In this document: one piece after another, positions 1-62,149 of the stretch | How positions within the stretch are numbered: the stretch's first letter is position 1 | Layout: the number at the start of each line of letters is the position of its first letter | Source: Octopus vulgaris | Taxonomy: Eukaryota | DNA: 64,000 nt | NCBI GenBank assembly: GCA_951406725.2 | Contig: OX597821.1 | Span: 79,484,001 to 79,548,000, forward strand | Direction: 5' to 3' | Translations under genes and position numbers: made by a program | Notes under the pieces: generated by a model | The model's database searches: none | What the model was told of the DNA's origin: nothing | Seen by the model: only the letters and a program-made list of their open reading frames with translations

Positions 1-3000
1 GGCATGTCGGCGAGACGGCACTACCGTGCCTTGACAGCTTGTCGCGAACAGGTAAAGCCGCACGGAAACACTGCCAGGCCAGGGATTTCTGGTAATTATC
101 CAGATACCCCGGCCCGAACGTCCTCCGGAACAGGTTGACCAACTGATTTTCATCGTAGCCCAGGGTCTCCCCCAAGGCGTCTTCGGACTTAACCTCCACT
201 AACCCGCTATAGAAATCCGTGGTGGAATTCCTGTTGCCGGCGTTGCCCACCCGAGAGAGTAGCTGGAGCGCCTGACGGCACTCCAAATGCCATTCACTCA
301 GTTTAGGTCTCCGCTTGATCCATGCACCGATGTCCGTTAGGGATGTTAACTGGGGAAAGTAGAACCGGACGTGCGGTGACCACACCTGCTCTCCATCCAG
401 GTAAAGCCAGAGGTGCCTCAACCTTAACGCGAGTTTTCGCATCCTCAGCCAAGGCATCCCTAGCCCACCCTTTAGCGGTTTCTGGCAGCAGACAGAGCGC
501 TTTACAAGTGGCTTTCCTCCTTTCCACAAAAATCGGAAAAGGATTCTCTCCAACTTGTTCAGCCACAAATCGGGGCAAGGCACCACGGTCAGACGGTAGG
601 TGATTACTGATGCTATAAACATCTGCACCACTTCCGCCTTCCCTAGCAGGGATAACGCCCGCCCAGACCAGGTTTGGGTTAGAGCGGTCACCATGTTGGC
701 CACCTCACTCCAATTTTTCTCAATCTGGAGGTCTGTCCCGAACCAGACTCCGAGCAGCTTAACAGGACCTTCCGTCCAACGCCCTACGACGTTATTGGAC
801 GGCATCGGCTTGCCCCTCCAGGTGCCGAGTTGCAAACCGACCGACTTGTCCTTGTTAACCTTTGCTCCTGCCACCGCCTCGTAGCTTTTGATGGCCTCTT
901 CCACCACTGGAAGCTGGCCTTCGTCTGCCACGATGATGGAGGTGTCATCCGCATACGCCGTAGCTCCTCTTCCACACCATGGATCATGCGGGGCGCCCCC
1001 TAGTGCCTCCAACTTCCGCAGCAAAGGCTCAAGAGCCAATACGTATAGGAGCGAGGACAGGGGACACCCTTGACGAACTGAACGCTCGATCCTGAACGGC
1101 TTCGAAAAGAAACCGTTCACCTTGACTACAGACTCGATGTCGCTATACAAAGCAGCGATCCAACCTCGAAAGGTCGGGCCTAGGCCAGCCTCTCCGAGGA
1201 CCGCCGCCAAGTACCGATGGTCGACCCTATCAAATGCTTTGGACTGGTCTAAATGTACCAGTGCTCCCCCTGCGCCAGAAAGCTTCCCCACCCTCTCTAA
1301 GGAGTAGCGTATAAGGTGGAGATTGTCGTAGATTGTTCTGCCAGGGATAGCGCACGTTTGCGCTTCCCCGACAAGTTTGTCCACGACCCGCGCCAACCTT
1401 TTTGCTAGCACCTTGGCCAGAATCTTTAACTCTGTGTTCAACTGAGTTATGGGCCTGAAGTTCCCTATCTCGTCCCCCTTGTTCGGGTCCTTCCTGATCA
1501 ACGTCACCGCCCCCCGGCTCGCAGACTTGGGAATTCTCCCATTCTGCTGCCAGTTGGCGTAGACGCTAGCCAGCAGGTGCCCGAACAAGTCTGGCATACT
1601 TTTATAAAATTCATAGGGCAGACCATCGAGACCCGGTGACTTCTCCCCGGGGCACTTGCCCAACACCTCGATTACTTCCTCGGCTGTGATTGGCCCTTCA
1701 CAGCACTCAGCCTCTCGTGTCGAGAGGCGCGGGCCATCAGACAGGAAGTCCCTAAGGGCCTCACCATGATCCAGCGTCCCGCACCTCCCGAACAACTCGG
1801 CAAAGTGCTTGTGAAGTGCCTCACACATCTCGTCCCGCTTCTTGATCGTGCATCCGTTTTCATCAACAAGAGACCCAATTGTGGCATCGTTTCCACGCTG
1901 TGTTTCTATCGTACGGGCCCATCCGGCAACATTAATTCCCTCACGGCCCAATGCTCGTACTTTAGCCCGAACTCTACATCCCTCATGTTTGGTTTTGAGG
2001 TGACGGTCTAATGCCGTTCTCGCCGCTAAAATGTGAGATGCAGAGCCCAACCTCAACGCTTCCTCTAAGTTCTTAACTAGTTGCCCTTCTATTCTAGCCC
2101 TATCTAGTCTTAGTTGTTTACTAAATCTAATGGACTCGAATCGAATGGCTCTTTTGAGGGCGAACCACCACCGGTTATTAACCACGGCTCCGGTTAACGC
2201 CCTCTGCACTAACACCTTAATCCGGCTACGGTATGCCTCGCGAGTCAAAATAGACTTGTTCAGCTTCCAGTAGCCGGTTCTTATCTTAAGTGTGCTATCT
2301 ATGTCCAGTCTACACGTAACCATTCTATGGTCAGTATAGGGCACCTGGACGAGCTGTGGACAACTAAAACTAGACTTATCTCTAGTTCTTATCACTATCC
2401 TGTCTAGATAAGACTTGAACCTTCCGTTGCCACTCATCCAGGTCCACTCTGGGACGTTCGGATGGTCAAGTCTGTAACGATCTGCCAGCTGAAACCGCTT
2501 AAGCAGATCCACGAGACGTGAGTTCACTTTCCTATAGATCGAGCCAACGCTATCGATGTGTACGTCAACGATAGCATTAAAGTCCCCTAATATCACTAAA
2601 GTCTTCGACGTCACGAGAAAGCCCTCTAGGCGCCGATAAAAATCAGTTTGGAAACCTCTAGCACAAGGTGCATAGAGTCCGATCAACCTGAAGGCCTTAC
2701 TGCTGTATGTCACATCAAGGACGACCAGCCCACCTTCTGGGTCTACATAGACTGTACTTGTCTGCAGAGCCAAGTCTTTACGGATCAGTACCACTACACC
2801 CCCTCGCCCTCCGGTCTGGCCAGGTGACATGATTTTCTCGCAGCCATTCAGGAGAGGCGAGAAGGTTTGTAGGCTGTCCAGCTTGGTCTCTGTAGCAACC
2901 ATCACATGTATATCATGTGATCTGAGGTCGTCGAGGAAACAAGCCTGCTTCCACTTCGAACTCAGACCACGCACATTTAAACAACCAAGGTTAAGAGAAG

Positions 3001-3004
3001 CTAT
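1..3004 (-). CDS. Tx1 ORF2, endonuclease-reverse transcriptase, open to the window edge
   Basis: IASLNLGCLNVRGL...ATETKL...LYAP at the start and TAYADDT at about 941-961 are in the same frame. Absent from the ORF track, consistent with no stop before position 1. Confidence 0.88.
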   Translation of the reverse strand, partial: MASLNLGCLNVRGLSSKWKQACFLDDLRSHDIHVMVATETKLDSLQTFSPLLNGCEKIMSPGQTGGRGGVVVLIRKDLALQTSTVYVDPEGGLVVLDVTYSSKAFRLIGLYAPCARGFQTDFYRRLEGFLVTSKTLVILGDFNAIVDVHIDSVGSIYRKVNSRLVDLLKRFQLADRYRLDHPNVPEWTWMSGNGRFKSYLDRIVIRTRDKSSFSCPQLVQVPYTDHRMVTCRLDIDSTLKIRTGYWKLNKSILTREAYRSRIKVLVQRALTGAVVNNRWWFALKRAIRFESIRFSKQLRLDRARIEGQLVKNLEEALRLGSASHILAARTALDRHLKTKHEGCRVRAKVRALGREGINVAGWARTIETQRGNDATIGSLVDENGCTIKKRDEMCEALHKHFAELFGRCGTLDHGEALRDFLSDGPRLSTREAECCEGPITAEEVIEVLGKCPGEKSPGLDGLPYEFYKSMPDLFGHLLASVYANWQQNGRIPKSASRGAVTLIRKDPNKGDEIGNFRPITQLNTELKILAKVLAKRLARVVDKLVGEAQTCAIPGRTIYDNLHLIRYSLERVGKLSGAGGALVHLDQSKAFDRVDHRYLAAVLGEAGLGPTFRGWIAALYSDIESVVKVNGFFSKPFRIERSVRQGCPLSSLLYVLALEPLLRKLEALGGAPHDPWCGRGATAYADDTSIIVADEGQLPVVEEAIKSYEAVAGAKVNKDKSVGLQLGTWRGKPMPSNNVVGRWTEGPVKLLGVWFGTDLQIEKNWSEVANMVTALTQTWSGRALSLLGKAEVVQMFIASVITYRLTVVPCPDLWLNKLERILFRFLWKGGKPLVKRSVCCQKPLKGGLGMPWLRMRKLALRLRHLWLYLDGEQVWSPHVRFYFPQLTSLTDIGAWIKRRPKLSEWHLECRQALQLLSRVGNAGNRNSTTDFYSGLVEVKSEDALGETLGYDENQLVNLFRRTFGPGYLDNYQKSLAWQCFRAALPVRDKLSRHGSAVSPTC

Positions 3005-3021
3005 TACAAAAAGTAAAAGTT

Positions 3022-4360
3022 CTACTTAGATTTCGTTGGAGAGGTTGGGGCCGACCTCACCACACATTTGTGGGCCCCTTCTTTCTCCTCCTTCATCAGA
3101 TAGTCCGGCAAGTTCGCGATATGCCGGATGGCGTTTGGTTGTCTGTCTTTTAATTGTTTGAACGTTGTTTCCGCAATCCACGCATATCTCTCGTTTCGAT
3201 CTTTGTATTTCTTGTACAGTCTTGCTGACTGATGCGGAACCACAATATCGTTTATGTATTTGTTTTGTGTGTCGAATTCAATTAATATGAGTTCATTTTT
3301 TTTGTCTTCTTTTTCTGGGCCAGTTGAGCGGGATTTTTTTTCGTGTCTGTGGTGTGTCTTTGTTTTTATTATTTTTTGTAGGGGATGTGGACGGGGATGA
3401 TGCACGAATTCTTTTACGAACTGTTGTAAATCCCCCCTCTGATACCTCCATGGTATCGTCTGGGGTAGCAATAGTTTGTTCAATAGGCGCCGCAGTTTTT
3501 AAGGGGGTGGGAGGTTTTAAAAATGTAGGGGTTTGTGAGTGCGAGGGCTGGGTTTTTTCTTCAGTTTGTTTTGGGGTTGGCACCGTAACAGCAGGAGTGG
3601 GATTTTTTGTTTTTGTAGGGGTGGGTGAGTTTGCAAGGGTAGGGATTTTTTTATTATCTGAGGGGCCTGGTGTCTGCGGTTTCTTTTGCTTGTCTGGACA
3701 GTCTACACGAATGTGGCCCTTTTTGCCGCAGGCGTAACAGGTGGGTCTTCGGCCTTCGACCTGTACCCTGAGGGCTACGTTCTCGCCCACGAGCACCCTC
3801 TCAGGAAGGAGCTGCAGGTCCTCCGGTGTTCCTTGAATTATTATATTAATGTTTCGCCCAAGCCAATATAGCGGGGCAGAGCATGTTACTTGTAGTATTT
3901 TAATTTTGTCCGTCCTTTTATATAACAGGGAGGCCACTACCTCTACCGGATCTACTTCCGGCGGGGCTTCTGCAATCCTGACCCGGGACGTCCTGCGTCC
4001 CCTATAGCTTGGGAAAAGTACCACCTCCTTGGTTTTTAGGGGGTTCACAGAATGCCCGCGGGCCACCTCTTCCCCCGAGAAGCGGACATCCACAGTGCCA
4101 TATGCCCGTCCCCTGGCGACGTACACAATGTCCTTCCAAATCGGGGACAGGCATTTCTCGATGGTGTTTTTTTCAAAGTGTTTGAGCCTTCTGCTTTGTG
4201 GACAGAAGGTTTTAAACACTACGGTCCGCTTCTCGGTCTCCACGATACTTTTTCTTCCAGTTTTTCTTCCAAAGCAGTTCAATAGTTCAAAAAATTTCAA
4301 TTCCCACCCCCATTCGGTGGAGGGGCACGAAAATAGTCTGGCAAGACTATATATAGTCAC
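3022..4360 (-). CDS. Tx1 ORF1 (zinc knuckle CYACGKKGHIRVDC), probably frameshifted near 3335
   Basis: ORF 3293-4360 plus overlapping ORF 3022-3483, whose C-terminal part looks like the continuation; an A-run lies at about 3333-3341. Confidence 0.75.
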
Positions 4361-4574
4361 GTAGATGAAAAAGCCACAATGGCTAACAGTTCAACCGGAG
4401 AACAAGACAGTTCAACAACGTTCAAAAACAAATTTTCAGTAGTAAAATTCAACAATTAACAACACAGCAAAACTCTTACCGGGAAGAAAACGCGTCCAAA
4501 CCGTAGTAAGGTAAGCAAAGTCACTCTTTAGTCAGTGAGGTTAGCAAGCTACTTACCACACAGCCACTCCTGCG

Positions 4575-4942: not shown

Positions 4943-5028
4943 ACATGGACCTCAAAGAAATCATAGAAAAAATTGAAGCCGGTGACATGGATGGTGCGAA
5001 AAACATGGTAGAACAATATTCAGGAAGC
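4943..5028 (+). CDS. ANK-RING-Death (Mind bomb-like) gene, first visible exon: MDLKEIIEKIEAGDMDGAKNMVEQYSGS
   Basis: Pyrimidine tract and AG at 4941-4942, ATG at 4945, donor GTAAGT at 5029. Phase 0 joins the next exon. Resembles the helix before the first MIB ankyrin repeat. May be an internal exon of a gene starting upstream. Confidence 0.7.
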
Positions 5029-11888: not shown

Positions 11889-13070
11889 TTCCGGTTAACC
11901 AGAATGCAACACTAGTTGGTCTGAACTGTTACAGTGAGATGTGAGTTTCGGCTCCGCGAATAGAAAAAAAGAACAAAAAGAAAAATTGTCAATTATGGCT
12001 CACTATACAGAGCAAAATATTGGGTTCTCATCACCGTAACGGTGAATTGAGAATTTTTGCTTGAAAATTCATTTTGTAAATTCTGCTGGGCGTATCTCGC
12101 CACAAAAATAAGAATAAGCCATTTGGATTACCTTTTTGGAGTATTATACAAAGGATTCCCTATCTGTACTATTTGTGAGGTTTTTCTTTTACTTTTCCCT
12201 TCTATTTTTTCTTTCTTTCTAAATGTTGGTTCATTCTTTTCATTACTTTAATTTCAGTGTCCTCCCCTCCTCTTTTATTTTGTTTTATTTTTATTCGGTT
12301 TAATTTTTTGGCAGACTGTCTTTTGAACTACTTTTGAACTGTTTTTTGACATGGCAGAGAAGGAACTTAAAAAGAAAAACTCTGTCTTAGTGTGGGAAAT
12401 TAACCCGCCTAAGCAGTGGTTAAAAGATATGGAGAAGATGGTGGTACTTAGAACTTATTCTAAAGTTCTTAATTCCATTACCGTCTTCCCAAAACAAGTC
12501 ATAAAAATTGAACTTAAAGAACATTTGTCCACTTTAAAATATATATCCCGTGGTGTCAAACATGCAACCGTATGGTTGCTGTTTGACAACGGGGAAAAAG
12601 CTCGCCAGTTTGCGAGTCAGCCTTTAGAAGGCAAGGAAATACTGTTTCTCCCGTCATATTGTGGAAGAAAATTAATACGAGCCTGGATATGTGGGCTCCC
12701 CCCGGGCACCGAAGCGGATTGGATTGAAGATACCATCCGACGGGGACTGGGGGATGGCGGGCCCAGGCTCTTAAATGTAAGGGTATTGTCGGCGGTCGAT
12801 TGGGAAGGATCAAAAGCGATTTTGACCCTGTGGACCCCATCGACCACAACAGATCAAGTTTTTCCAAATTTCTTGAAAATGGCTGGCTGCAGGTATCCGG
12901 TGATACTAGAGGGACGTCCCCCCAAGTGTCACTCGTGCCTGCAGCCAGGCCACATTAAAAGGAACTGCCCCCAGGTAAGGTCCTGGAACAGTCACTAGAT
13001 GCCACCTCCCCTACCCGGTCAAAGGGAGAGGTGGATGTGGTCGAGGAGGCTTCAGCCTCCTCAACTCAAA
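11889..13070 (+). mobile_element. Second Tx1-like element, 5' fragment with ORF1 (12351-12998)
   Basis: EGRPPKCHSCLQPGHIKRNC knuckle and LFLPSYCGRK, similar to LFPSYRGRR in the first element; no ORF2. Confidence 0.8.
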
Positions 13071-13783: not shown

Positions 13784-13935
13784 ATTAACCAATCAGATTC
13801 AAACGGTAAAACTTACTTGATGACTGCTGTTGAACTGGGCAACACACATTTAATAAACTTCCTCATAGATGCCGGAGCTGATTTAGATATGAGAGACAGA
13901 AGCGGTTCCACTGCTTTACATTATGCGGTGATTGG
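13784..13935 (+). CDS. Exon 2, ankyrin repeats: INQSDSNGKTYLMTAVELGNTHLINFLIDAGADLDMRDRSGSTALHYAVIG
   Basis: CAG acceptor ending 13783, GTAAGT donor at 13936, ankyrin consensus (GADLD..D..G.TALHYA), phase 0 to 2. Confidence 0.92.
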
Positions 13936-22623: not shown

Positions 22624-22774
22624 GTTTCAACTTCAAGTGGTGACGATCTTATTATCCCGGGGCAGCGATGAGAATGCGATGAACGAAAAGGGCTGGACTC
22701 CTCTCCATTTGGCTGCGGGGAAGGGGAAAGAATGGAAAGATGTTGTGGCAGCTTTATTACAAACAAATGTTAAG
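22624..22774 (+). CDS. Exon 3, ankyrin: [50 protein letters not shown]
   Basis: CAG acceptor, GTTAGT donor, G.TPLHLAA motif, phase 2 to 0. Confidence 0.92.
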
Positions 22775-24422: not shown

Positions 24423-24580
24423 GTGAATCAACGAAATAGCTTCTTTGGGAGCACACCTCTACACTGGGCCTGTTCCTGGGGCCATACAGACACAGTTCGC
24501 CTCTTACTGAACCACAAAGGTATTGATGCCAATGTCTTGGACATTGATGGAAACACACCACTGCATGTGGCAGTTCGGGA
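24423..24580 (+). CDS. Exon 4, ankyrin: VNQRNSFFGSTPLHWACSWGHTDTVRLLLNHKGIDANVLDIDGNTPLHVAVR
   Basis: CAG acceptor, GTAAGT donor, two TPLH motifs, phase 0 to 2. Confidence 0.93.
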
Positions 24581-25696: not shown

Positions 25697-25733
25697 GCAA
25701 TGCTATGATGTGGTGACGTTAATGCTGTCCCAG
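25697..25733 (+). CDS. Exon 5 (37 nt): (E)QCYDVVTLMLSQ
   Basis: Strong pyrimidine tract with CAG, GTTAGT donor. Phase 2 to 0 bridges exons 4 and 6 and supplies the second ankyrin helix. Confidence 0.85.
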
Positions 25734-28284: not shown

Positions 28285-28494
28285 GATTCAGTCGAACTGG
28301 AAATCAAGAACCGTGCTAACAGAACACCATTTCTTCAAGCTGTCTCTCAAAGCAATCTCGGAATGATGCATAAGATGATAGCTCGGGGTGCAAATATAAA
28401 TGCTGTTGATGGTGAAGGCAACAGTTGTTTGCACTTCGCTGTGAACAAAGACGCGTTTCATTCCGAGAGTGCACCCAGGGAAATTTTAGATGAG
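28285..28494 (+). CDS. Exon 6, ankyrin: [70 protein letters not shown]
   Basis: CAG acceptor, GTAAGA donor, [14 protein letters not shown] motif, phase 0 to 0. Confidence 0.92.
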
Positions 28495-35440: not shown

Positions 35441-35616
35441 TGCTGCACGGAGCTGAACCTGAAAAAGGAAGAATGGTACTCTGGCGTAGTGGTTGCTAGA
35501 TATCTAGCCAACCACGGAGCCGACCTTTACCATAAAAATAACAACAATAACACACCATTGGACCTCATTAAGGACCCAAATTTGAAACAAAGATGGCAAA
35601 CCTTTTCACCACCACA
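35441..35616 (+). CDS. Exon 7, last ankyrin: CCTELNLKKEEWYSGVVVARYLANHGADLYHKNNNNNTPLDLIKDPNLKQRWQTFSPP
   Basis: TAG acceptor, GTAAGT donor, phase 0 to 2. Not in the ORF track. Resembles, from memory, the MIB1 terminal ankyrin [30 protein letters not shown]. Confidence 0.9.
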
Positions 35617-43880: not shown

Positions 43881-44020
43881 ATGTTTGTGGTGCGGACACG
43901 AAGAGGCCACAACAAAATTCCACCCATGTGGACATCTTATCACCTGTGAAGAATGTTCAACAACTTCTCTTAAGCTATGTCTGAGGTGTTTGAAACCTAT
44001 AACAAGCAGAGGTGGAGTCG
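43881..44020 (+). CDS. Exon 8, C3HC4 RING: CLWCGHEEATTKFHPCGHLITCEECSTTSLKLCLRCLKPITSRGGV
   Basis: CAG acceptor, GTAAGA donor, spacing C-x2-C-x11-C-x-H-x3-C-x2-C-x7-C-x2-C, phase 2 to 1. Confidence 0.93.
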
Positions 44021-46703: not shown

Positions 46704-47396
46704 ATGTGTGTGTATATGTTTGTGTGTCTGTGTTTGTACCCCTAGCATTGCTTGACAACCGATGCTGGTGTGTTTAAGTCCCCGTAACTTACCGGTTCGG
46801 CAAAAGAGACCTACAGGATAAGTACTAGTCTTACAAAGAATAAGTCATGGGGTCGATTTGCTCGACTAAAAGGCGGTGCTCCAGCATGGTCGCAGTCAAA
46901 TGACTGAAACAAGTAAAAGAGTAAAAGAGATTGTTAGTGAAAATTATAGTCTTGTGAACAGATTTGGCATAGATATAAGCAAAAAAAACTTAGAGATTAA
47001 CTGTAATTAAGTGATAATTAAGTGATAATTAAGTGATAATTAAGTGATATAATTGCAACATTGCAAGATTACGTAGGATGTCTTAATAAAGAGGGGAAAT
47101 TTATGAAGATCGATCACATTTTGTTTTGGATCTAAATATTGGCTGTTACATGGAACCACTTTTTAAAGTATAAAGATATTGACTAAAACCATTATGATCG
47201 CTGGTTGACCATTGATGATAGGAATGCCTCGCAATAATAAAACACATTATTAATAAAGATAAAGAAATTTTGCTGTAAAGTATAAAACTTGGAAACACAT
47301 ACTTCAGCCGAGCTATTTTGTTTATCAGAATAGTGAAGAACAGATCACATTTCTAATTTCCATTTGAATGGTTAGCTGTAAATGAATTATATTAAA

Positions 47397-48775: not shown

Positions 48776-49017
48776 TTTGATTGAATGTAGACGGCGAGAT
48801 TTACATGGGTGTACTTGCTAAGATATCAACTACATATCTACAAAATAATGGTTATGAGACTGAAAGTATCCAGAAGACTGAAATCCCTGGAATTTTGGGA
48901 TGTGTAGAAATTGCATCTTCAATCTAGGATACGATACAAGACACAAAGAAGAATAAAAGGGATTTGAATGTTGTATGGCTTGAGCTGTTGAAGAAAACAA
49001 TTGACTTCTTTTATATA

Positions 49018-49636
49018 CGCGGTGTTCTGTTTTTGATTCGACGGTCATTCGGAATGCTCACAGCAGCCATATTCATACCGCTCTATGTCACGCTGGTGAG
49101 ACCCATATTGGAGTACGGGATTCAAGCCTCTTCTCCTTATCTCCTCAAAGACATACATCATCTCGAAAGAGTCCAGAAGCTGGCTACCCACATGGTTCTT
49201 GGTCTCAAGCATTTGTCTTATGAAGAAAGGCTGACGACGCTCGACCTTTATTCTCTAGAAAAACGACGACGCCGTGGTGATCCCATTCTTGCTCACAACA
49301 ACATAAGCTGAAAGTGTAACCTCTCGAAAGAGCTGTTCTTCACTCCTGCTCCAAAGCGTCGGCTGCGGGGTCACTCCGAAAAGCTCTACCTGCGACGATT
49401 TCATTTCAATCGAAGGAGAGGGTCTTTCTCCGTCCGGGTTGCGGATCCGTGGAATAAGCTGCCGGACGAGATAGTGAAGATGCCGATGACCGCTCGTTTC
49501 AAAGTCTCTCTTGAACACAAATGGCCTGAACTCTTTGTATGAACACCACCCTGTACATAACTCCATGTCCCCCTACATGGCCTTGCTTTTTGCTTTTTGA
49601 GCCAAAAAATTAACTTAACTTAACTTAACTTAACTT
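49018..49636 (+). mobile_element. CR1-type LINE 3' end, copy 1, with (TAACT)n tail
   Basis: LYVTLVRPILEY, ERVQKLAT..V.GL..LSYEERL..LDLYSLE.RR.RGD. Confidence 0.9.
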
Positions 49637-52351: not shown

Positions 52352-52412
52352 TTAATAATAAAGAAAAAGAAAGTCTACTATTAAATGTAAAACTTGGAAA
52401 TATTCATTTCAG

Positions 52413-52484
52413 GTTCTGCAATGTGCGAGGACAAGCATGTACAGACAGACTCACAGCTGTTAGAGACTGCATCCCAGCAACTTG
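52413..52484 (+). CDS. Exon 9 (72 nt, symmetric phase 1-1): (G)SAMCEDKHVQTDSQLLETASQQL, diverged paralog of exon 10
   Basis: TTTCAG acceptor, GTGAGT donor, open frame, flanks homologous to those of exon 10. Could be skipped without a frameshift. Confidence 0.7.
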
Positions 52485-52605
52485 GTGAGTATAAAATAAC
52501 AGTTCATAATTGATTTCTATAAGTTTTACTTTACCAGGGTATATTGTACGTGTGAGAATGACTGATATTGAAAGATTAACTGTGTGATAATTCTATTAAA
52601 GATAT

Positions 52606-53110
52606 GGGCGGCGAGCTGGCAGAAACGTTAGCACGCCGGGCGTAATGCGTAGCCGTATTTCGTCTGCCGTTACGTTCTAGGTTCAAATTCCGCCGAGGTC
52701 GACTTTGCCTTTCATACTTTCGGGGTGGATAAATTAAGTACCAGTTATGCACTGAGGCCGAGATAATCGACTTAATCCGTTGGTCTGTACTTGTTTGTCC
52801 TCTCTGTGTTTAGACCCTTGTGGGTAGTAAAGAAATAGGTATTTCGTCTGCCGTTACGTTCTGAGTTGAAGTTCCGCCGAGGTCGAATTTGCTTCTCATC
52901 CTTTCGGGGTCGATTAAATAAGTACCAGGTATGCACTGGGGTCGATTGTCGACTTTGCCTTTCATCCTTTCGGGGTCGATTGTCGACTTTGCCTTTCATC
53001 CTTTCGGGATCGATTAAATAAGTACCAGGTATGCACTGGGTCGATGTAATCGACTTAATACCTATGTTCCCTCTATGTTTAGCCCCTTGTGGGTAGTAAA
53101 GAAATAGATA
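52606..53110 (+). mobile_element. SINE family B with Nin/Deu-like core, often in tandem multimers; also 6217-6447, 26085-26480, 47985-48647, 55021-55475
   Basis: ggcggcgagctggcagaa head, gttcaaattcc B box, gactttgcctttcatcctttcggggtcgataaa..agtaccag core. Confidence 0.82.
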
Positions 53111-53710
53111 AGGATATCACTGAAAGGTCATAAAATACCCATCGAGGTTAGCACACTTTACTCTTTTAGTCTTTTCCTTGTATCAGTCATTTGACTGCGG
53201 CCATGCTGGAGCACCGCCTTTAGTCGAGCAAATCGACCACAGGACTTATTCTTTGTAAGCCTAGTACTTATTTTATCAGTCTCTTTTGCCGAACCGCTAA
53301 GTTACGGGGATGTAAACACAGCAGCATCGGTTGTCAAGCGATGTTGGGGGGGGGGAAACACACACAGACATATATATATATATATATATACACGATGGGC
53401 TTCTTTCAGTTTCCGTCTACCAAATCCACTCACAAGGCTTTGGTCAGCCCGAGGCTATAGTAGAAGACACTTGCCCAAGGTGCAGTGGGACTGAACCGAG
53501 AACCATGTGGTTGGTAAGCAAGATACTTACCACACAGCCATTCCTGCGCCTATTTGATATTTAAATTTAGGAGACAAAATTCTGAGTTAATGTTATCATT
53601 TGGTCAGGGAATAAATGATTTTCTTTAAACAGGCAAGTTATGTTTTTGTTTGTTTTTCATGTTTACTGTTTGCAACTCAACTTGATTTCGAGCCGGGTCG
53701 TCTGCTGCTG

Positions 53711-54408
53711 GAGATGACCGACCAGGTAAAGAACCTGGGTATCTCGGTGGATTCATCCTTTTCGCCTTCGGCCCAGTGCGTCCATGCTGCCAACAAAGCA
53801 CGCGGAATTCTGTTTTTGATTCGACGGTCATTCGGAATGCTCACAGCAGCCATATTCATACCGCTCTATGTCACGCTGGTGAGACCCATATTGGAGTACG
53901 GGATTCAAGCCTCTTCTCCTTATCTCCTCAAAGACATACATCATCTCGAAAAAGTCCAGAAGCTGGCTACCCACATGGTTCTTGGTCTCAAGCATTTGTC
54001 TTATGAAGAAAGGCTGACGACGCTCGACCTTTATTCTCTAGAAAAACGACGACGCCGTGGAGATCTCATTCTTGCTCACAACAACATAAGCGGAAAGTGT
54101 AACCTCTCGAAAGAGCTGTTCTTCACTCCTGCTCCAGAGCGTCGGCTGCGGGGTCATTCCGAAAAGCTCTATCTGCGACGATTTCATCTCAATCGAAGGA
54201 GAGGGGCTTTCTCCGTCCGGGTTGCGGATCCGTGGAATAAGCTGCCGGACGAGATAGTGAAGATGCCGATGACCGCTCGTTTCAAAGTCTCTCTTGGCCA
54301 GAAATGGCCTGAACTCTTTGCATGAACACCACCCTGTACATAACTCCACGTCCCCCTACATGGCCTTGCTTTTTGCTTTTTGAGCCAAAAAATTAACTTA
54401 ACTTAACT
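53711..54408 (+). mobile_element. CR1-type LINE 3' end, copy 2, nearly identical to copy 1
   Basis: ORF 53615-54325 with the same motifs and the same tail. Confidence 0.9.
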
Positions 54409-56283
54409 TGATAGGCTGTTGTTGTTATCGTTGCTGTTTAGGCAGATGTCTGTCACAATCTTGCAGAGTTGCAATGAATTTTGTTCCAAGTGTGAATGTG
54501 CTGACAGTGTGTTCCTGCTTAAACAACTATTGTATCTCTTTCCTCGAGATAAATACTTGCTGCAAGCTACAATGCAATAACATCGTCCTTTTGGCTTATC
54601 AGCTGATCTTCATGCTCCAATCATTTAGATGGATGGTCACTGTCCAAGCCAGTTCATTGGTTGAGGAACACATCGCTTAAATATTCCGGCTTCTCCGGGT
54701 TGGTATGCCCTTCTTAACATCAACCATTGTATAAACGGTGCTGGCTACATTTTACATGGCAAAAAATACTAGAAATATGTAGTGTCCTCAAGAAGAATAG
54801 ACATTCCTCTCTAACTTATGAAAAGAAATATCAGACAAGCTGGAAGAAAAAAGGAGAGTAAACTTAGTAGATAGCAGCTCCATAAGAACCTTAGTGAGAT
54901 TACTAGGAAGTTATTTGCAGATACTCAGGGTGGTAGGTGAAAATATACTGAAGATGGGCTGGACGGGCATATACAGGTGACCAACGGTGACCAACGGTGA
55001 CCAACGGTGACCAACGGTGACCGAAAGGATGAAAGGTAAAGTCGACCTCGGCGGAATTTGAATTCAGAAAGTAACGGCAGACGACATACCTATTTCTTTA
55101 CTACCCACAAGGAGCTAAACACAGAGGTGACAAACAAGGACAGACAAATGGATTAAGTCGATTATATCGACCCCAGTGCGTAACTGGTACTTCATTTATC
55201 CACCCCGAGAAGATGAAAGGCAAAGTCGACCTCGGCGGAATTTGAACTAAGGACGTAACTGCAGACGAAATACCTATTTCTTTATTACCCACAAGGGGCT
55301 ACACACAGAGGGGACAAACAAGGATAGACAAACGGATCAAGTCGATTACATCGACCCCAGTGAATAACTGGTACTTAATTTATCCACCCCGAAAGGATGA
55401 AAGGCAAAGTCGACCTCGGCGGAATTTGAACTCGGAACGTAACGGCATATGAAATACTGCTACGCATTTCGCCCGGTGACAAACCATTCCCACTCACGAA
55501 CAGTTTGAAATGCCCATCGAAAACCGCAATCAAATATTTTAGCTTGGTTGATTTTAGCAAGAAACAAGTATGTGGCTGTGTGAAGAAGGCAAGAACAAAG
55601 AATGGTATATAAGGTAATGGTGTACCATATAAAGGGTACAAGTATTGTATTCAAGTATGCTATAAGCTTTACCTACTATTTAGAGAGTTGTAACATAAAG
55701 GTGAACTGGTTGATGCCTGGTGCAAGGTAGAAAGATTTAATTAACAAAGGAAGCTAAAGCAAAATTTATTGGCCTGTTCAGACCAATTTTAATCCTGACT
55801 GTAGATGGCTTTAGTTGCTACTTATCTACAAAATCATGGCTTTGGGAAAGAAAATGGCAAGAAGGCTGGTATCTCCGGAATCCATGGTTGTGTGGTACAA
55901 GGATTTTCAATTTGGGATGCATACAATACAGAAAGGGGATTAAAAAGGAGTTTGTTGCTAATACTTATGGTTCTGTACCACTCAGTAGATAGTTCCAATC
56001 AACTGTCGATGAAAGCAATGAACTTCTTTTATACATTGGAAAAGATGAGTGTCTGATGAGGAACTGTTATAACAATTCCAAATTGCGGTTCTTGAAAGAG
56101 TATTTCACAACAGGCGCAGGAGTGGCTGTGTGGTAAGTAGCTTGCTAACCAACCACATGGTTCCGGGTTCAGTCCCATTGCATGGCACCTTGGGCAAGTG
56201 TCTTCTACTATAGCCTCGGGCCGACCAATGCCTTGTGAGTGGATTTGGTAGACGGAAACTGAAAGAGGCCCGTCGTATATATG

Positions 56284-56352
<69 letters not shown>

Positions 56353-57177
56353 TTGTGTGTCTGTGTTTGTCCCTCTAGCATTGCTTGACAACCGATGCTG
56401 GTGTGTTTACGTCCCCGTCACTTAGCGGTTTGGCAAAAAGAGACCGATAGAATAAGTACTGGGCTTACAAAGAATAAGTCCCGGGGTCGATTTGCTCGAC
56501 TAAAAGCGGTGCTCCAGCATGGCTGCAGTCAAATGACTGAAACAAATAAAAGAGTAAAGAGAGAAAGAGTAAAGAGTAAAGAGAGTGTCATCCTCTTGAG
56601 ATTGGAATTGGAATTTCGTCTCAGCTTGTAATGGGGAAGCAGCTTAGATCAGCAAATATATCAGAAGAAATGACTCGAGTGAGATCACCTAACGATTCTT
56701 TAATGGATAATATAACAAAGAGAGCAAAATGAATTGCGAATAGTTCAGGATAGATTGGATGGACTAATTACTTGGTCAAGAATGTGGTTTAAAGCAAATA
56801 GAAATGCAGTCTGTCAGTTATCAAAGGTCAGCAGAAGTGAAGTTCAAAATATCAGGAGAAACCATGCCTAAGGTTAAAGAGAAACCTGTAAAAAGTTTAG
56901 GACGATCGTATACATTACCTTTAACAAAGAGAACAGGTGTATATTTATCCTGTATGAAATTGTGTGCCATGTGTTTGTGAAAAGATCTTTAATGACTAAT
57001 TTGGTTAACATTGGAATTAAGCAGGCAAAGAGAATGTTGGTTAGTTATGTCTAGAGATGAGAGGACAATTCTATGCCATACGTTTGACACAAATGTAAGA
57101 AAAGAAAGACAAAACTAAGAGAAAAACTTTGTTATCAATTGATAATTAAATTGGATAATTGCAGCATTATTAGATTA

Positions 57178-58667
57178 TGAGGGTGAGCTGAAAGGGATCA
57201 TAGGGTTAGGACGAAGGAGTGGTGTGCATTAAGTTTAATATTTCTTAAATGGATTGTCTGATTCCACGTAAACTGACATCTGGATGTTCAAAGAAGACTT
57301 GAAATGGTATTAGTACCGACTTCTTTTGAAAATGGACGAAATTTGGCATCGTGATTTTATCAAGTACTTGCAGAAAAACTTGTTTAGCCCCTACAAGGGT
57401 AATATGCTGACACGGTTGCTATATTCAGTGATGACATTCCAGTTTTATCAACCGTGCAAAAGTGGGCAGCTGAATTTAGGAGGCAACCAGAGAATGTTAA
57501 AGAAGAGGACCCAGCGTCCTGCAACTTCCACAACCGAGGAAATCGTTTAACTTGTACACCGCATGGTGATGGATGACAGGCATTTGACTATAAACTAAAT
57601 AGCCAAATGCTATTAGCATTTTCTGTGAGCGATTGAAGAAGATTCTGCACAATGAACTTAGCATGACGATGGCTAAAATCTGACATTGTTTAAAACAGAT
57701 CCAGTTGGTTTCCTTGAGCATTTCCTAAGTCAGGCTGACTGTTAAATTCATTACTTTGAGCCAGGGACAAAGACTCAATCCATTTGGTGGAAACACACCG
57801 CCTCATCTGCTCCGAAGAAGGTCAGCATCGTTTCATCTGCATCGAAGGTGATAGTCTCAGTTTTTTGTGATGTAAAAGATATTGGGTTTATTAACTACTA
57901 GCAGTATCACCCGGCGTTGCTCGGGTTTGTAAGGGAAATAACTATATAAGCATTTTTAGACAGTTACATCCCTTATATAAACCGAGCAAAAAATGCATTA
58001 AGAAAACGAAAAAATGATGGTAAATTTTTTTAAAATCGTAGACTCATTGTAGACGCGCGCTAATACCCAGAAGGGCTCGATATGAATCCCGACTATAAGA
58101 TACCCGGTTTTGGTTAAACTGCACCGCAAAATGGGGGAGTAGTTAGGAATCTAAATCGGAGTAGACAGACTCTCACACAACTTCAGTTTTATATATAAAG
58201 ATTTTCAGAAGGGCCTCGCCATCAATGGAGAGTACTATGCCAACTTACTGTGGGAGCTACAAAACGCTATCAAGACCAAATGCCCAGGAAAACTAATGAA
58301 AGGGGTCATATATCACCAAGACAATGCTCCAGCACATAAGTCCTTGCTTTCAGTGATTGTTGTGCATGACTGTGGTTTTGAACTAGTTGATAAAACCTTC
58401 CTTTTGTCCTCTTTCCCTGATTCAGCCCCTTCTGATTATCGTTTGTCCATCAACTGTCAAAAATACGCTGTTGGGAACCAGTGACGATGACATCTTATCT
58501 GCAGTTGATGAGTTTTTTTTGGAGCATCTGGATGAAAGATTGTTCACCAATGGGATTCAAGAACTGAAATCCTAATGGAAAACGTATGTGGACCAAAGGG
58601 GTCTGTGTTGAAAAAAAAACTTAATTTTCTCAGATTCCATGAGAATATCTTTTTCAGCCGACCATTA
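57178..58667 (+). mobile_element. Degraded mariner transposon with nested Helitron-like insertion
   Basis: YHQDNAPAH, PDSAPSDY; imperfect TIRs tgagggtgagctgaa / ttcagccgaccatta. Confidence 0.8.
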
Positions 58668-59207
58668 TATCTAGGATGCTTGATAAAGAAAGGGGATTTA
58701 GGAATAGTCTATTCTGCCGTTGACCTGACTATTGAGCTATTATATGGTACCTTTGTAAAACGTATAAACGTGTTGAGCAAAACCGTAGATGCCACCATTT
58801 GACATTTGATGACTGGAATATCTTATAATAATAAAATATAGATTACTAGCAGTATCGCCCGGCGTTGCTCGGGTTTGTAAGGGAAATAACTATATAAGCA
58901 TTTTAGAGAGTTACTTCCCTTATATAACCCGAGCAAAAATCATTAAAAATGCGGAAAAATAATGGTAATTTTTTTTAAATCGTAGACTCAGCGTAGATGC
59001 GCGCTAATACTTAGAAGGACTCAATATGAATGACGACTATAAGATACCCGCTTTTGGTTAAACTGCACCGCAAAATGTGGGAGTAGTTAGGAATCTAAAT
59101 CGGAGGAGACAGAGTCTCACACACACTACTTCAATTTTATATATAAAGATTAATAAAGATTAAGAAATTTTACTATAAAGTGTAAAACATGGAGATATTT
59201 ATTTCAG

Positions 59208-59279
59208 AATCTCGAAAACTGGAAGAGAGGGATCTTCTGCTGGTGGCGCGTCAGTTAGGAAGCAATTGGTGGCATGCTG
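59208..59279 (+). CDS. Exon 10 (72 nt, phase 1-1), Death domain helices 1-2: (E)SRKLEERDLLLVARQLGSNWWHA
   Basis: TTTCAG acceptor, GTGAGT donor, L..VA..LG..W Death-domain signature. Confidence 0.9.
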
Positions 59280-60293
59280 GTGAGTAGAAAGTAACAATCT
59301 CTAATTGATCTCTATACATTTTACCTTCACTTGAGCTTTTGCATGTCAGAAGGACTGAGGTCAGGTTTCATTCCTGGTTTCCATTTGAAATGATAGCTAT
59401 AAAATAATTCTATTAAACGTAAAGTATACTAGCCATCTCAATATGGCTAACCACTAAGGGTGGGTGTTACTGTAGCTTTTAGCCCCAGGAGATCATCGTC
59501 TCCAGCTGGCTTTAGGCACACTTTCTGTGCCCTTATGGTATTTGCAAAGGGAGGTCATCCCTCTCTCGTAAACCTAAGTGATACGCACGGACTGCAGTTT
59601 CGAGGTATTTGCCTCTTGTCAACGTACGGTAATCACCGGTTTTCGATGAAGAGAGACCTGTTTGCAAATATCTATTTAATGTTTTTCCAAGCATTCTATT
59701 AAAGATGTTACTGAAATTTAATAAAATTGAGGTTAGCTTGATTGGTAAAATGGATAAATGAATAAAACACGATAGAGTAGATATTGTCTGTTGGGTGAAG
59801 GGACTAAAATATGTTGTTGTTTAAAGGTAAACAGGTGAGTTAATAACAAGGTTTTTGCGTGTTTTACGTTTTAATGAAGTTTACTTTTTGGTATTTGTAA
59901 TGAAGGAAAGTTAACAACCAAAATAAGTCTTGTTTATTTTACTATAAAACTTTGAGTTAGGTTTTCCTTGAAACAACCACTTCTAGGGTCATTGTGTAAG
60001 AAGCAGATTATTCTGATTCATATCACCATATCCTTATGGCCCTCGCAGGGATATTGAGCAGAGGAAATGAATGAGCGAATCCAATGGTTGGATTCTGTTG
60101 GTGGTTTATGTTGATTCTTTAGGCTCTGATACACTTTTGTCTTCGCAAACACTTCTCCTGCCATTTATTTACCATACATATTCTCAAGTGTGAGATTCCT
60201 AGACATTTCAGCACGGCTGTCCGTACGAACGGACTCTAGCTGGTTAATGATGTAGAGTAGCAACCGATAAATTGCGAGCATGGGAGTGAACCC

Positions 60294-61943: not shown

Positions 61944-62149
61944 GTATTTTCTTGGACATTAAAACTTCTGAGCTGGACATTATCAAGCGTGACAATAGAA
62001 ATGATACTATAGAGCAGAGCTATCAGATGCTGTACAAATGGTTCACAAGTTGTGATCCAAAGAAACGTACAGCGGAAACAATAAAAGCAGCTCTTGAAGA
62101 AGCTCAATGTTTTAATGCCCTTCAATGTCTATCGTTAGGTATAAAATAA
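61944..62149 (+). CDS. Terminal exon 11, remainder of Death domain: GIFLDIKTSELDIIKRDNRNDTIEQSYQMLYKWFTSCDPKKRTAETIKAALEEAQCFNALQCLSLGIK*
   Basis: TTTTGCAG acceptor, phase 1, EQ.YQML..W...T...I..AL Death-domain pattern, stop TAA ending 62149. Confidence 0.92.

Follow-up and report, generated by a model that had tools for sequence, protein, structure and literature searches.

The window analyzed here is a stretch of 64,000 nucleotides (nt) of Octopus vulgaris DNA (contig OX597821.1, positions 79,484,001 to 79,548,000), in which 11 plus-strand exons, from position 4945 to position 62149, form a single frame of 485 amino acids (aa). By Pfam the encoded protein has the domain order ankyrin repeats, RING (exon 8), exon 9, and Death (exons 10 and 11). 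We propose, with a probability of about 0.6, that exon 9, a 72-nt phase 1-1 cassette at 52413..52484, is a spliced linker exon, likely a copy of the exon for Death helix 1, and that its peptide is predicted to bind dimeric LC8 and to pair two ankyrin-RING-Death proteins. The exon with which it is compared throughout, exon 10 (59208..59279), is the start of the Death domain (helix 1 and the beginning of the next helix): it follows exon 9 in assembled contigs, the Pfam Death match begins inside it, and its equivalent in paralog P0007 starts helix 431-451 of a confident model.

Exon 9 is covered by one contig in each of four sequencing runs out of four (from four studies), with zero differences. 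The sequence preceding it is the end of exon 8 in the X11 and X2 contigs, the sequence following it is the start of exon 10 in the X11, X10, and X2 contigs, and exon 11 lies one 72-nt exon further on in the same X1, X11, and X10 contigs, which were matched between analyses by length and depth. None of the runs is recorded as RNA; the exon junctions show that the contigs are spliced. The form 8-9-10-11 is made, and assembly into contigs drops rare variants such as the skipping forms 8-10, 9-11, and 8-11. Of the junctions that the initial annotation proposed to count, 8-9 and 9-10 are present, and exon 9 is spliced in.

The LC8/DYNLL motif has been described as [DS]-K-x-[TVI]-Q-[TV]-[DE], located in disordered segments near dimerising domains (PMC3078936; for this and all other papers cited here, statements refer to the portions of text available). 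Codons 52430..52450 of exon 9 encode D-K-H-V-Q-T-D (positions -4 to +2), and DKHVQTD agrees with all six specified positions of the seven-residue consensus. Compared by eye with the residue preferences in PMC6607443, under which an internal proline, a hydrophobic residue at -4 or +2, and a bulky aromatic at -2 count as disfavoured, D at -4, K at -3, and D at +2 are favoured and there is no proline, while His at -2 is not settled there. The RING and Death domains flank the motif, and the linker of paralog P0007 is predicted to be disordered, with no secondary structure and a local model confidence (pLDDT) below 50 at residues 366-425.

Genome G000 encodes an 89-aa LC8 (locus L171). A model of this LC8 as a dimer with two exon 9 peptides scored 0.68, and the best of three controls scored 0.33; LC8 contacts came only from peptide residues 3-14, with the V and Q of the motif placed in the groove at LC8 residues 36 and 62-66. 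The mark used for such models is reached by 51/78 solved and 2/108 mismatched pairs (39/65 and 2/126 for eukaryotes), with agreement figures of at least 0% of contacts between runs and a partner pLDDT of at least 45. AlphaFold thresholds published for LC8, with 8% false positives (PMC12057147), are not those applied to the exon 9 model.

Cassettes of this kind were found across a large gene family. Of 150 candidates scored in G000, 149 matched the last Death exon; this is a minimum for the exon and counts broken copies too. We fetched 80 stretches near the better matches, which merged to 63 regions (64 with the window) and are a non-random sample. A profile search with the shared upstream flank located units in 56/64 regions. 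The unit that stands immediately ahead of the final Death exon is the helix-1 exon (n=56), and the remaining 116 units are linker cassettes, 0-7 per locus; these counts are lower bounds since many regions end before the RING. Among the 116 cassettes, 113 have a length of 48, 51, 57, 72, or 78 nt, and AG/GT ends are present in 97. All 116 have the flanks of the Death helix-1 exon in common with it and align in register with that exon (closest pair, 11 differences in the first 41 bases), the 51-nt class aligning as a form 21 nt shorter. Exon 9 itself groups with 57/72/78-nt cassettes of other genes at a bootstrap of 100, both in trees from flanks alone and in joint trees. Two 72-nt linker types without the motif nest among the helix-1 exons, which suggests that helix 1 was likely copied more than once.

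When the cassettes were searched with the core pattern [KR]x[TVISM]Q[TV], we observed it in 73/116 (35/58 distinct peptides) vs. 0/56 helix-1 exons; shuffled peptides carry the core in 0.47 of 58 (maximum 4), vs. the 35 observed. At the motif register the helix-1 exons encode K/R at codon 7, an invariant L at codon 9, L/H/Q at codon 10, and a variable residue at codon 11, so three replacements suffice for the anchor. Exon 9 is without the helix-1 core residues L9, V12, A13, and W20, all of which vary little or not at all among 33 helix-1 exons.

The units around exons 9 and 10 were then realigned, and the identity counts of the initial annotation proved exact: 48/57 between the upstream flanks (52356..52412 and 59151..59207, each including the acceptor), 38/48 between the downstream flanks (52485..52532 and 59280..59327, each including the donor), and 32/72 within the exons, both of which are indeed 72 nt, AG/GT, phase 1-1, and open. 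The difference between flanks and exon is significant (Fisher p = 3e-7; with splice signals removed, 68/85 vs. 32/72, p = 5e-6). Similarity of the flanks through A+T bias was rejected, since base composition predicts an identity of only 35% and 31%. The 44% identity of the exons exceeds the 25% chance level (p = 2.7e-4), and the upstream homology ends sharply past 57 nt (6/20 in the next two windows). By codon position the two exons agree at 14, 8, and 9 of 23 first, second, and third positions, so that third positions diverged as far as second ones. When 171 units are ranked by the distance of their flanks from those of exon 9, exon 10 comes only 43rd, and the two are not closest relatives; the nearest flanks to exon 9, 9-10% apart, belong to cassettes of other genes. 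Within-gene conversion was considered and is unsupported, with flank medians of 0.41 for same-gene and 0.39 for different-gene comparisons. The view of exon 9 as a copy of Death helices 1-2 turned into a new linker holds for its linker role and its register homology to the Death helix-1 exon; for the other part of that view, strong diversifying selection as the driver of the change, the data give no demonstration. The initial annotation had neither the LC8-type motif nor the family-wide arrays.

The host gene has lost one cassette of its own. At 47307/47308, within a relic of a 51-nt linker cassette at 46919..47396 that aligns to paralogous units, 102 bp (the 51-nt exon and 51 nt of donor intron) are missing, and the alignment jumps from offset 0 to 102 in four of the six best matches shown, and the remaining two come from adjacent units at loci of this kind. 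The deletion begins exactly at the cassette acceptor and leaves both intron flanks in place. Proteins of O. sinensis and O. bimaculoides bear the same arrays, and isoforms differ in cassette number (3/2/2 in P0007/P0009/P0003 and 5/4/3 in P0018/P0015/P0019, as counted on automatic database models). The named relatives are all Octopus, although the word-based search could miss other cephalopods.

Several further arrays were recorded. The longest (L092-L093, G000:C31:7422050-7435521) holds six near-identical 78-nt cassettes about 2.1-2.6 kb apart and one 51-nt cassette. The 48-nt class (loci such as L107, L124, L135, and L148) has an AA acceptor in 10 units; this acceptor is unspliced in the run contigs, and the class may represent a defunct exon that was duplicated together with the array. 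In the P0089, P0167 cluster the cassettes read K-x-V-K-T, often with C-P-x-C, and one O. sinensis gene of this cluster has at least 14 listed isoforms that differ in cassettes. The O. sinensis isoforms P0011 and P0012 use an upstream acceptor into the helix-1 exon with a frameshift, so that the Death domain is lost and the RING and cassettes are kept.

How might such a linker work? The duplication of helix 1 probably took place early in the octopus family, before the lineage of the host gene, and replacements in codons 9-11 of helix 1 (L to V, L to Q, and a variable residue to T) would have produced the V-Q-T anchor; the number of sites would afterwards vary through tandem duplication, deletion, and exon skipping. 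The RING and Death domains of the ankyrin-RING-Death family probably self-associate. LC8 bound at a site between them would likely hold two molecules in register, the pairing would favour RING-dimer ligase activity and Death-Death contact, and extra cassettes would add avidity and length. The LC8 dimer is known to bind and duplex two chains (PMC12057147). As a wider and tentative proposal, three codon changes may have turned the helix into an LC8-binding strand, giving about 150 ankyrin-RING-Death sensors with 0-6 LC8 sites, in which duplication, deletion, and skipping might dial dimerisation, ligase activity, and Death firing.

A number of observations weigh against an LC8-binding linker. One of the three model runs was low (scores of 0.26, 0.69, and 0.68), the peptides lie outside the calibration of the tool, and 8/33 modelled residues are intron read-through; the pass can reflect likeness to solved LC8-peptide complexes, since motif and LC8 are a textbook-like pair. 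Many anchor-bearing peptides fail to bind LC8 (PMC6607443). The strict consensus occurs in only 7/116 cassettes, the core pattern was widened after inspection of the data, 43/116 cassettes and the whole fetched stretch of 22/56 loci are without it, and entire arrays read K-x-V-K-T (P0089). The RING in the P0007 model also has a low pLDDT, and a shallow alignment may partly explain the linker score. Deeper tree nodes are poorly supported (53-66), so that the direction from Death to linker rests on the Death domain being ancient, as is established, and not on a rooted tree. The database model of the host gene omits exons 6, 9, and 10.

Some of these observations would be expected if the cassettes were flexible spacers: one ancestral copy would have chanced on K-x-V-Q-T and passed it to its descendants, selection would act only on frame, length, and hydrophilicity, and copy number would set the RING-to-Death distance. 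We regard this as somewhat unlikely. The 43 cassettes without the core and the 113/116 that keep a frame-preserving length agree with it, as do the later motif-less helix-1 copies that were also retained as linkers. K-3, Q0, and T+1 have an omega (dN/dS) of 0.39 vs. 0.73 for the other codons (p = 0.012), a difference that is only moderate and that falls to p = 0.10 when position -1 is added, and P2, K3, and E5 are retained with a frequency much like that of the anchor (in 34, 31, and 40 of 49). Against a pure spacer, exon 9 follows the consensus in full, K-3 and Q0 rank with the most constrained codons and use both of their synonymous codons, changes at -1 are mostly to T, S, M, or I, and the core is kept in 34/49 tips, above all simulations without motif-specific selection, which keep it in 5-22% (P <= 0.0035).

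The initial annotation had argued that an exon diverging twice as fast as its introns, with length and frame intact, must have been under strong diversifying selection. In this explanation selection drove the copy off the Death sequence, and the introns are the true neutral clock. We find it improbable. Between exons 9 and 10 the Nei-Gojobori proportions are pS 0.585 and pN 0.541 (dS 1.14, dN 0.96, ratio 0.84), and pN exceeds pS in 38% of bootstraps; silent and replacement sites are equally distant, and both lie far above the flank distance of about 0.2. The pairwise dN/dS and that within the cassette clades (0.66) are both below 1, the outcome that the initial annotation had named as refuting its claim.

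The same pattern was seen in exons of unchanged role. For disjoint gene pairs, binned by intron distance alone, the last Death exon differs by 0.289, its fourfold sites by 0.256, and the introns by 0.168 (18 pairs), and the helix-1 exons by 0.406, their fourfold sites by 0.538, and the introns by 0.243 (21 pairs); keeping alignable intron blocks biases the intron distances low. In the shallowest bin fourfold sites are not clearly faster (0.000 vs. 0.040 for helix 1 and 0.063 vs. 0.047 for the last Death exon); it is in the two deeper bins that they exceed the introns. The fast silent sites owe little to base composition, from which 0.17-0.26 would be expected in these two bins and 0.22-0.55 was observed. 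The idea that proximal flanks are specially conserved is likewise unsupported: intron 100-400 nt off diverges alike in 199 pairs, taken for their alignability out of the first 900 of 2371. Exon 9 seems faster than its introns because all exons in the family outrun introns and because exon 9 left the constraints of the Death fold. Its distance from exon 10 is 0.556, vs. a mean of 0.32 and a maximum of 0.54 in 36 helix-1 pairs of like flank distance, an excess that fits the loss of Death constraints together with the gain of the motif.

Models of selection gave a similar picture. Over whole classes, 33 helix-1 exons have an omega of 0.66 and 49 last Death exons one of 0.49; the value is 0.71 in 36 51-nt cassettes and 0.56 when 65 cassettes are compared over their first 12 codons. 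Site models found no significant positive class (p = 0.15, 0.44, 1.0, and 0.34), with low power at 12-23 codons. A branch model whose lengths came from the flanks (82 peptides, excluding the two 48-nt types) put silent sites at about 2.3 times the flank rate. In this model omega is 0.73 for helix 1 (<1, p about 0.014), 0.66 for motif cassettes (<1, p about 0.002), 1.8 for the stems (p about 0.12), and 1.4 for motif-less copies (p about 0.15), neither of the last two being significantly above 1. The value for the motif cassettes shows purifying selection on them. All of these models were custom-coded on short alignments, and recombination among paralogs could inflate exon rates. What favours diversifying selection is that exon trees are 1.7 times longer than flank trees, that the distance between exons 9 and 10 lies just above all of the like-flank helix-1 pairs, that first and second positions of Death exons equal or exceed introns in recent paralogs, that distal introns are no faster than proximal flanks, and that the stem estimate of omega is 1.8; a seven-class branch model also places amino-acid change on stems without flank change, but it ran into its bound on two stems of zero length and permits no interpretation. 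An adaptive burst may still have taken place at the origin of the cassettes.

Finally, exon 9 as an alternative or mutually exclusive first Death exon that alters or disables the Death domain, also put forward in the initial annotation, is very improbable and is refuted as the main form: the two exons are adjacent, homologous, and alike in length and phase, database models P0001 and P0004 skip both, and paralog isoforms P0011, P0012, and P0176 drop or shift the helix-1 exon, but exons 9 and 10 are joined to each other on unbroken contigs of X1, X11, X10, and X2 in 4/4 runs, which means that they are not mutually exclusive, and exon 9 does not carry the helix-1 core.

The other parts of the host gene are as follows. 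Exons 1-7 encode the ankyrin repeats (4945-5028, 13784-13935, 22624-22774, 24423-24580, 25697-25733, 28285-28494, and 35441-35616; AG/GT ends, chained phases, Pfam Ank on P0004), and exon 1 begins 29 codons ahead of the first repeat exon. Exon 8 (43881..44020) encodes the RING finger (Pfam zf-C3HC4_3, E 1.8e-8 on P0004). The coding part of exon 11 (61944..62149) supplies the remaining Death domain and the stop. Death (PF00531) scores above its curated cut-off of 22.6 bits both with exon 11 alone (24.0 bits) and with P0007 (23.6 bits); neither exon 9 alone nor exon 10 alone has a Pfam Death match. P0004, named 'MIB2-like' in its O. vulgaris source, equals the 485-aa gene model minus exons 6, 9, and 10, and P0002 and P0005, models of other genes, splice the RING directly to the last Death exon; in these two the short exons were presumably simply missed. 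The O. vulgaris database models P0001, P0002, P0004, and P0005 are often without the short linker and helix-1 exons and so have a truncated Death domain. Numerous copies of the last Death exon, almost all of them containing stop codons, form two tandem runs at about 216.93-216.97 Mb and 102.71-102.73 Mb of G000:C1. Just upstream of the gene, at 2-4390 on the minus strand, open frames of 1008, 158, and 365 codons resemble, by eye, a long interspersed nuclear element (LINE) retrotransposon with an endonuclease start. Retroelement-like intronic frames were also seen at 12327-12995, 49017-49626, and 53615-54409, with 97% identity between 49017-49626 and 53800-54409.

Mind bomb proteins are defined by N-terminal MIB/HERC2 and ZZ domains. 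The octopus protein resembles MIB1/MIB2 in having ankyrin repeats followed by RING (by Pfam), and MIB1 ANK (8v0e) is one of many ankyrin structures that its ankyrin part matches; the fold search matched only ankyrin structures and the representative search mostly ankyrin proteins, and neither bears on the Death domain or the linker. Unlike Mind bomb it has a single RING and a C-terminal Death domain, and Pfam matches to MIB/HERC2 and ZZ ahead of the ankyrin repeats are absent in P0007, P0003, and P0004. The 'MIB' database label is a best-hit name, and membership in Mind bomb fails.

Multivalent LC8/DYNLL clients are known in ASCIZ (PMC5963919) and KANK1 L2 (PMC12803091). The octopus linker resembles clients of this type in its tandem Q-T anchored motifs and disordered linker, binding being predicted here; it differs in that each site has one exon, the number varies from paralog to paralog and isoform to isoform, and the motif maps in register onto an ancestral Death helix 1. 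In Bim a DKSTQT site on exon E2C is present in BimEL and BimL and absent from BimS (PMC4695108), so that splicing adds or removes an LC8 site (a predicted one in octopus) in a cell-death-related protein in both cases; unlike the octopus cassettes, Bim has a single site in another protein family, with no array and no folded-domain origin. The NCoR co-repressors also combine motif gain, gene duplication, and splicing into isoforms with differing motif numbers (PMC4554918), but there the CoRNR boxes originated within a single large exon, which was split afterwards, whereas in octopus the motif exon itself was duplicated. LC8 motifs are described as arising anew in existing proteins, with exons not mentioned in the text available (bioRxiv 10.1101/2023.09.15.557927). 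Our literature search, which covered open sources and not subscription journals or supplements, found nothing on the linker of this octopus family or on a Death helix turned into an LC8 motif.

Snake-venom phospholipases are a gene family in which exons evolve faster than introns. The octopus family is like them in that coding sequence, silent sites included, outruns introns between paralogs; it differs in being intracellular and in that none of the three exon types tested has a significant class under positive selection. Since introns are outrun by silent sites as well, identity of exon vs. intron is a poor test of selection in multigene families of octopus. If the LC8-binding reading of exon 9 is true, the family would offer a traceable passage from a folded-domain helix to a short binding motif, in which the ancestor, the intermediate forms, the losses, and a recent deletion scar are all present in one genome. 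LC8 would be the first concrete, if predicted, partner for a large and mislabelled octopus family, and the natural series of 0-6 sites per gene would make LC8 valency vs. RING/Death activity directly testable.

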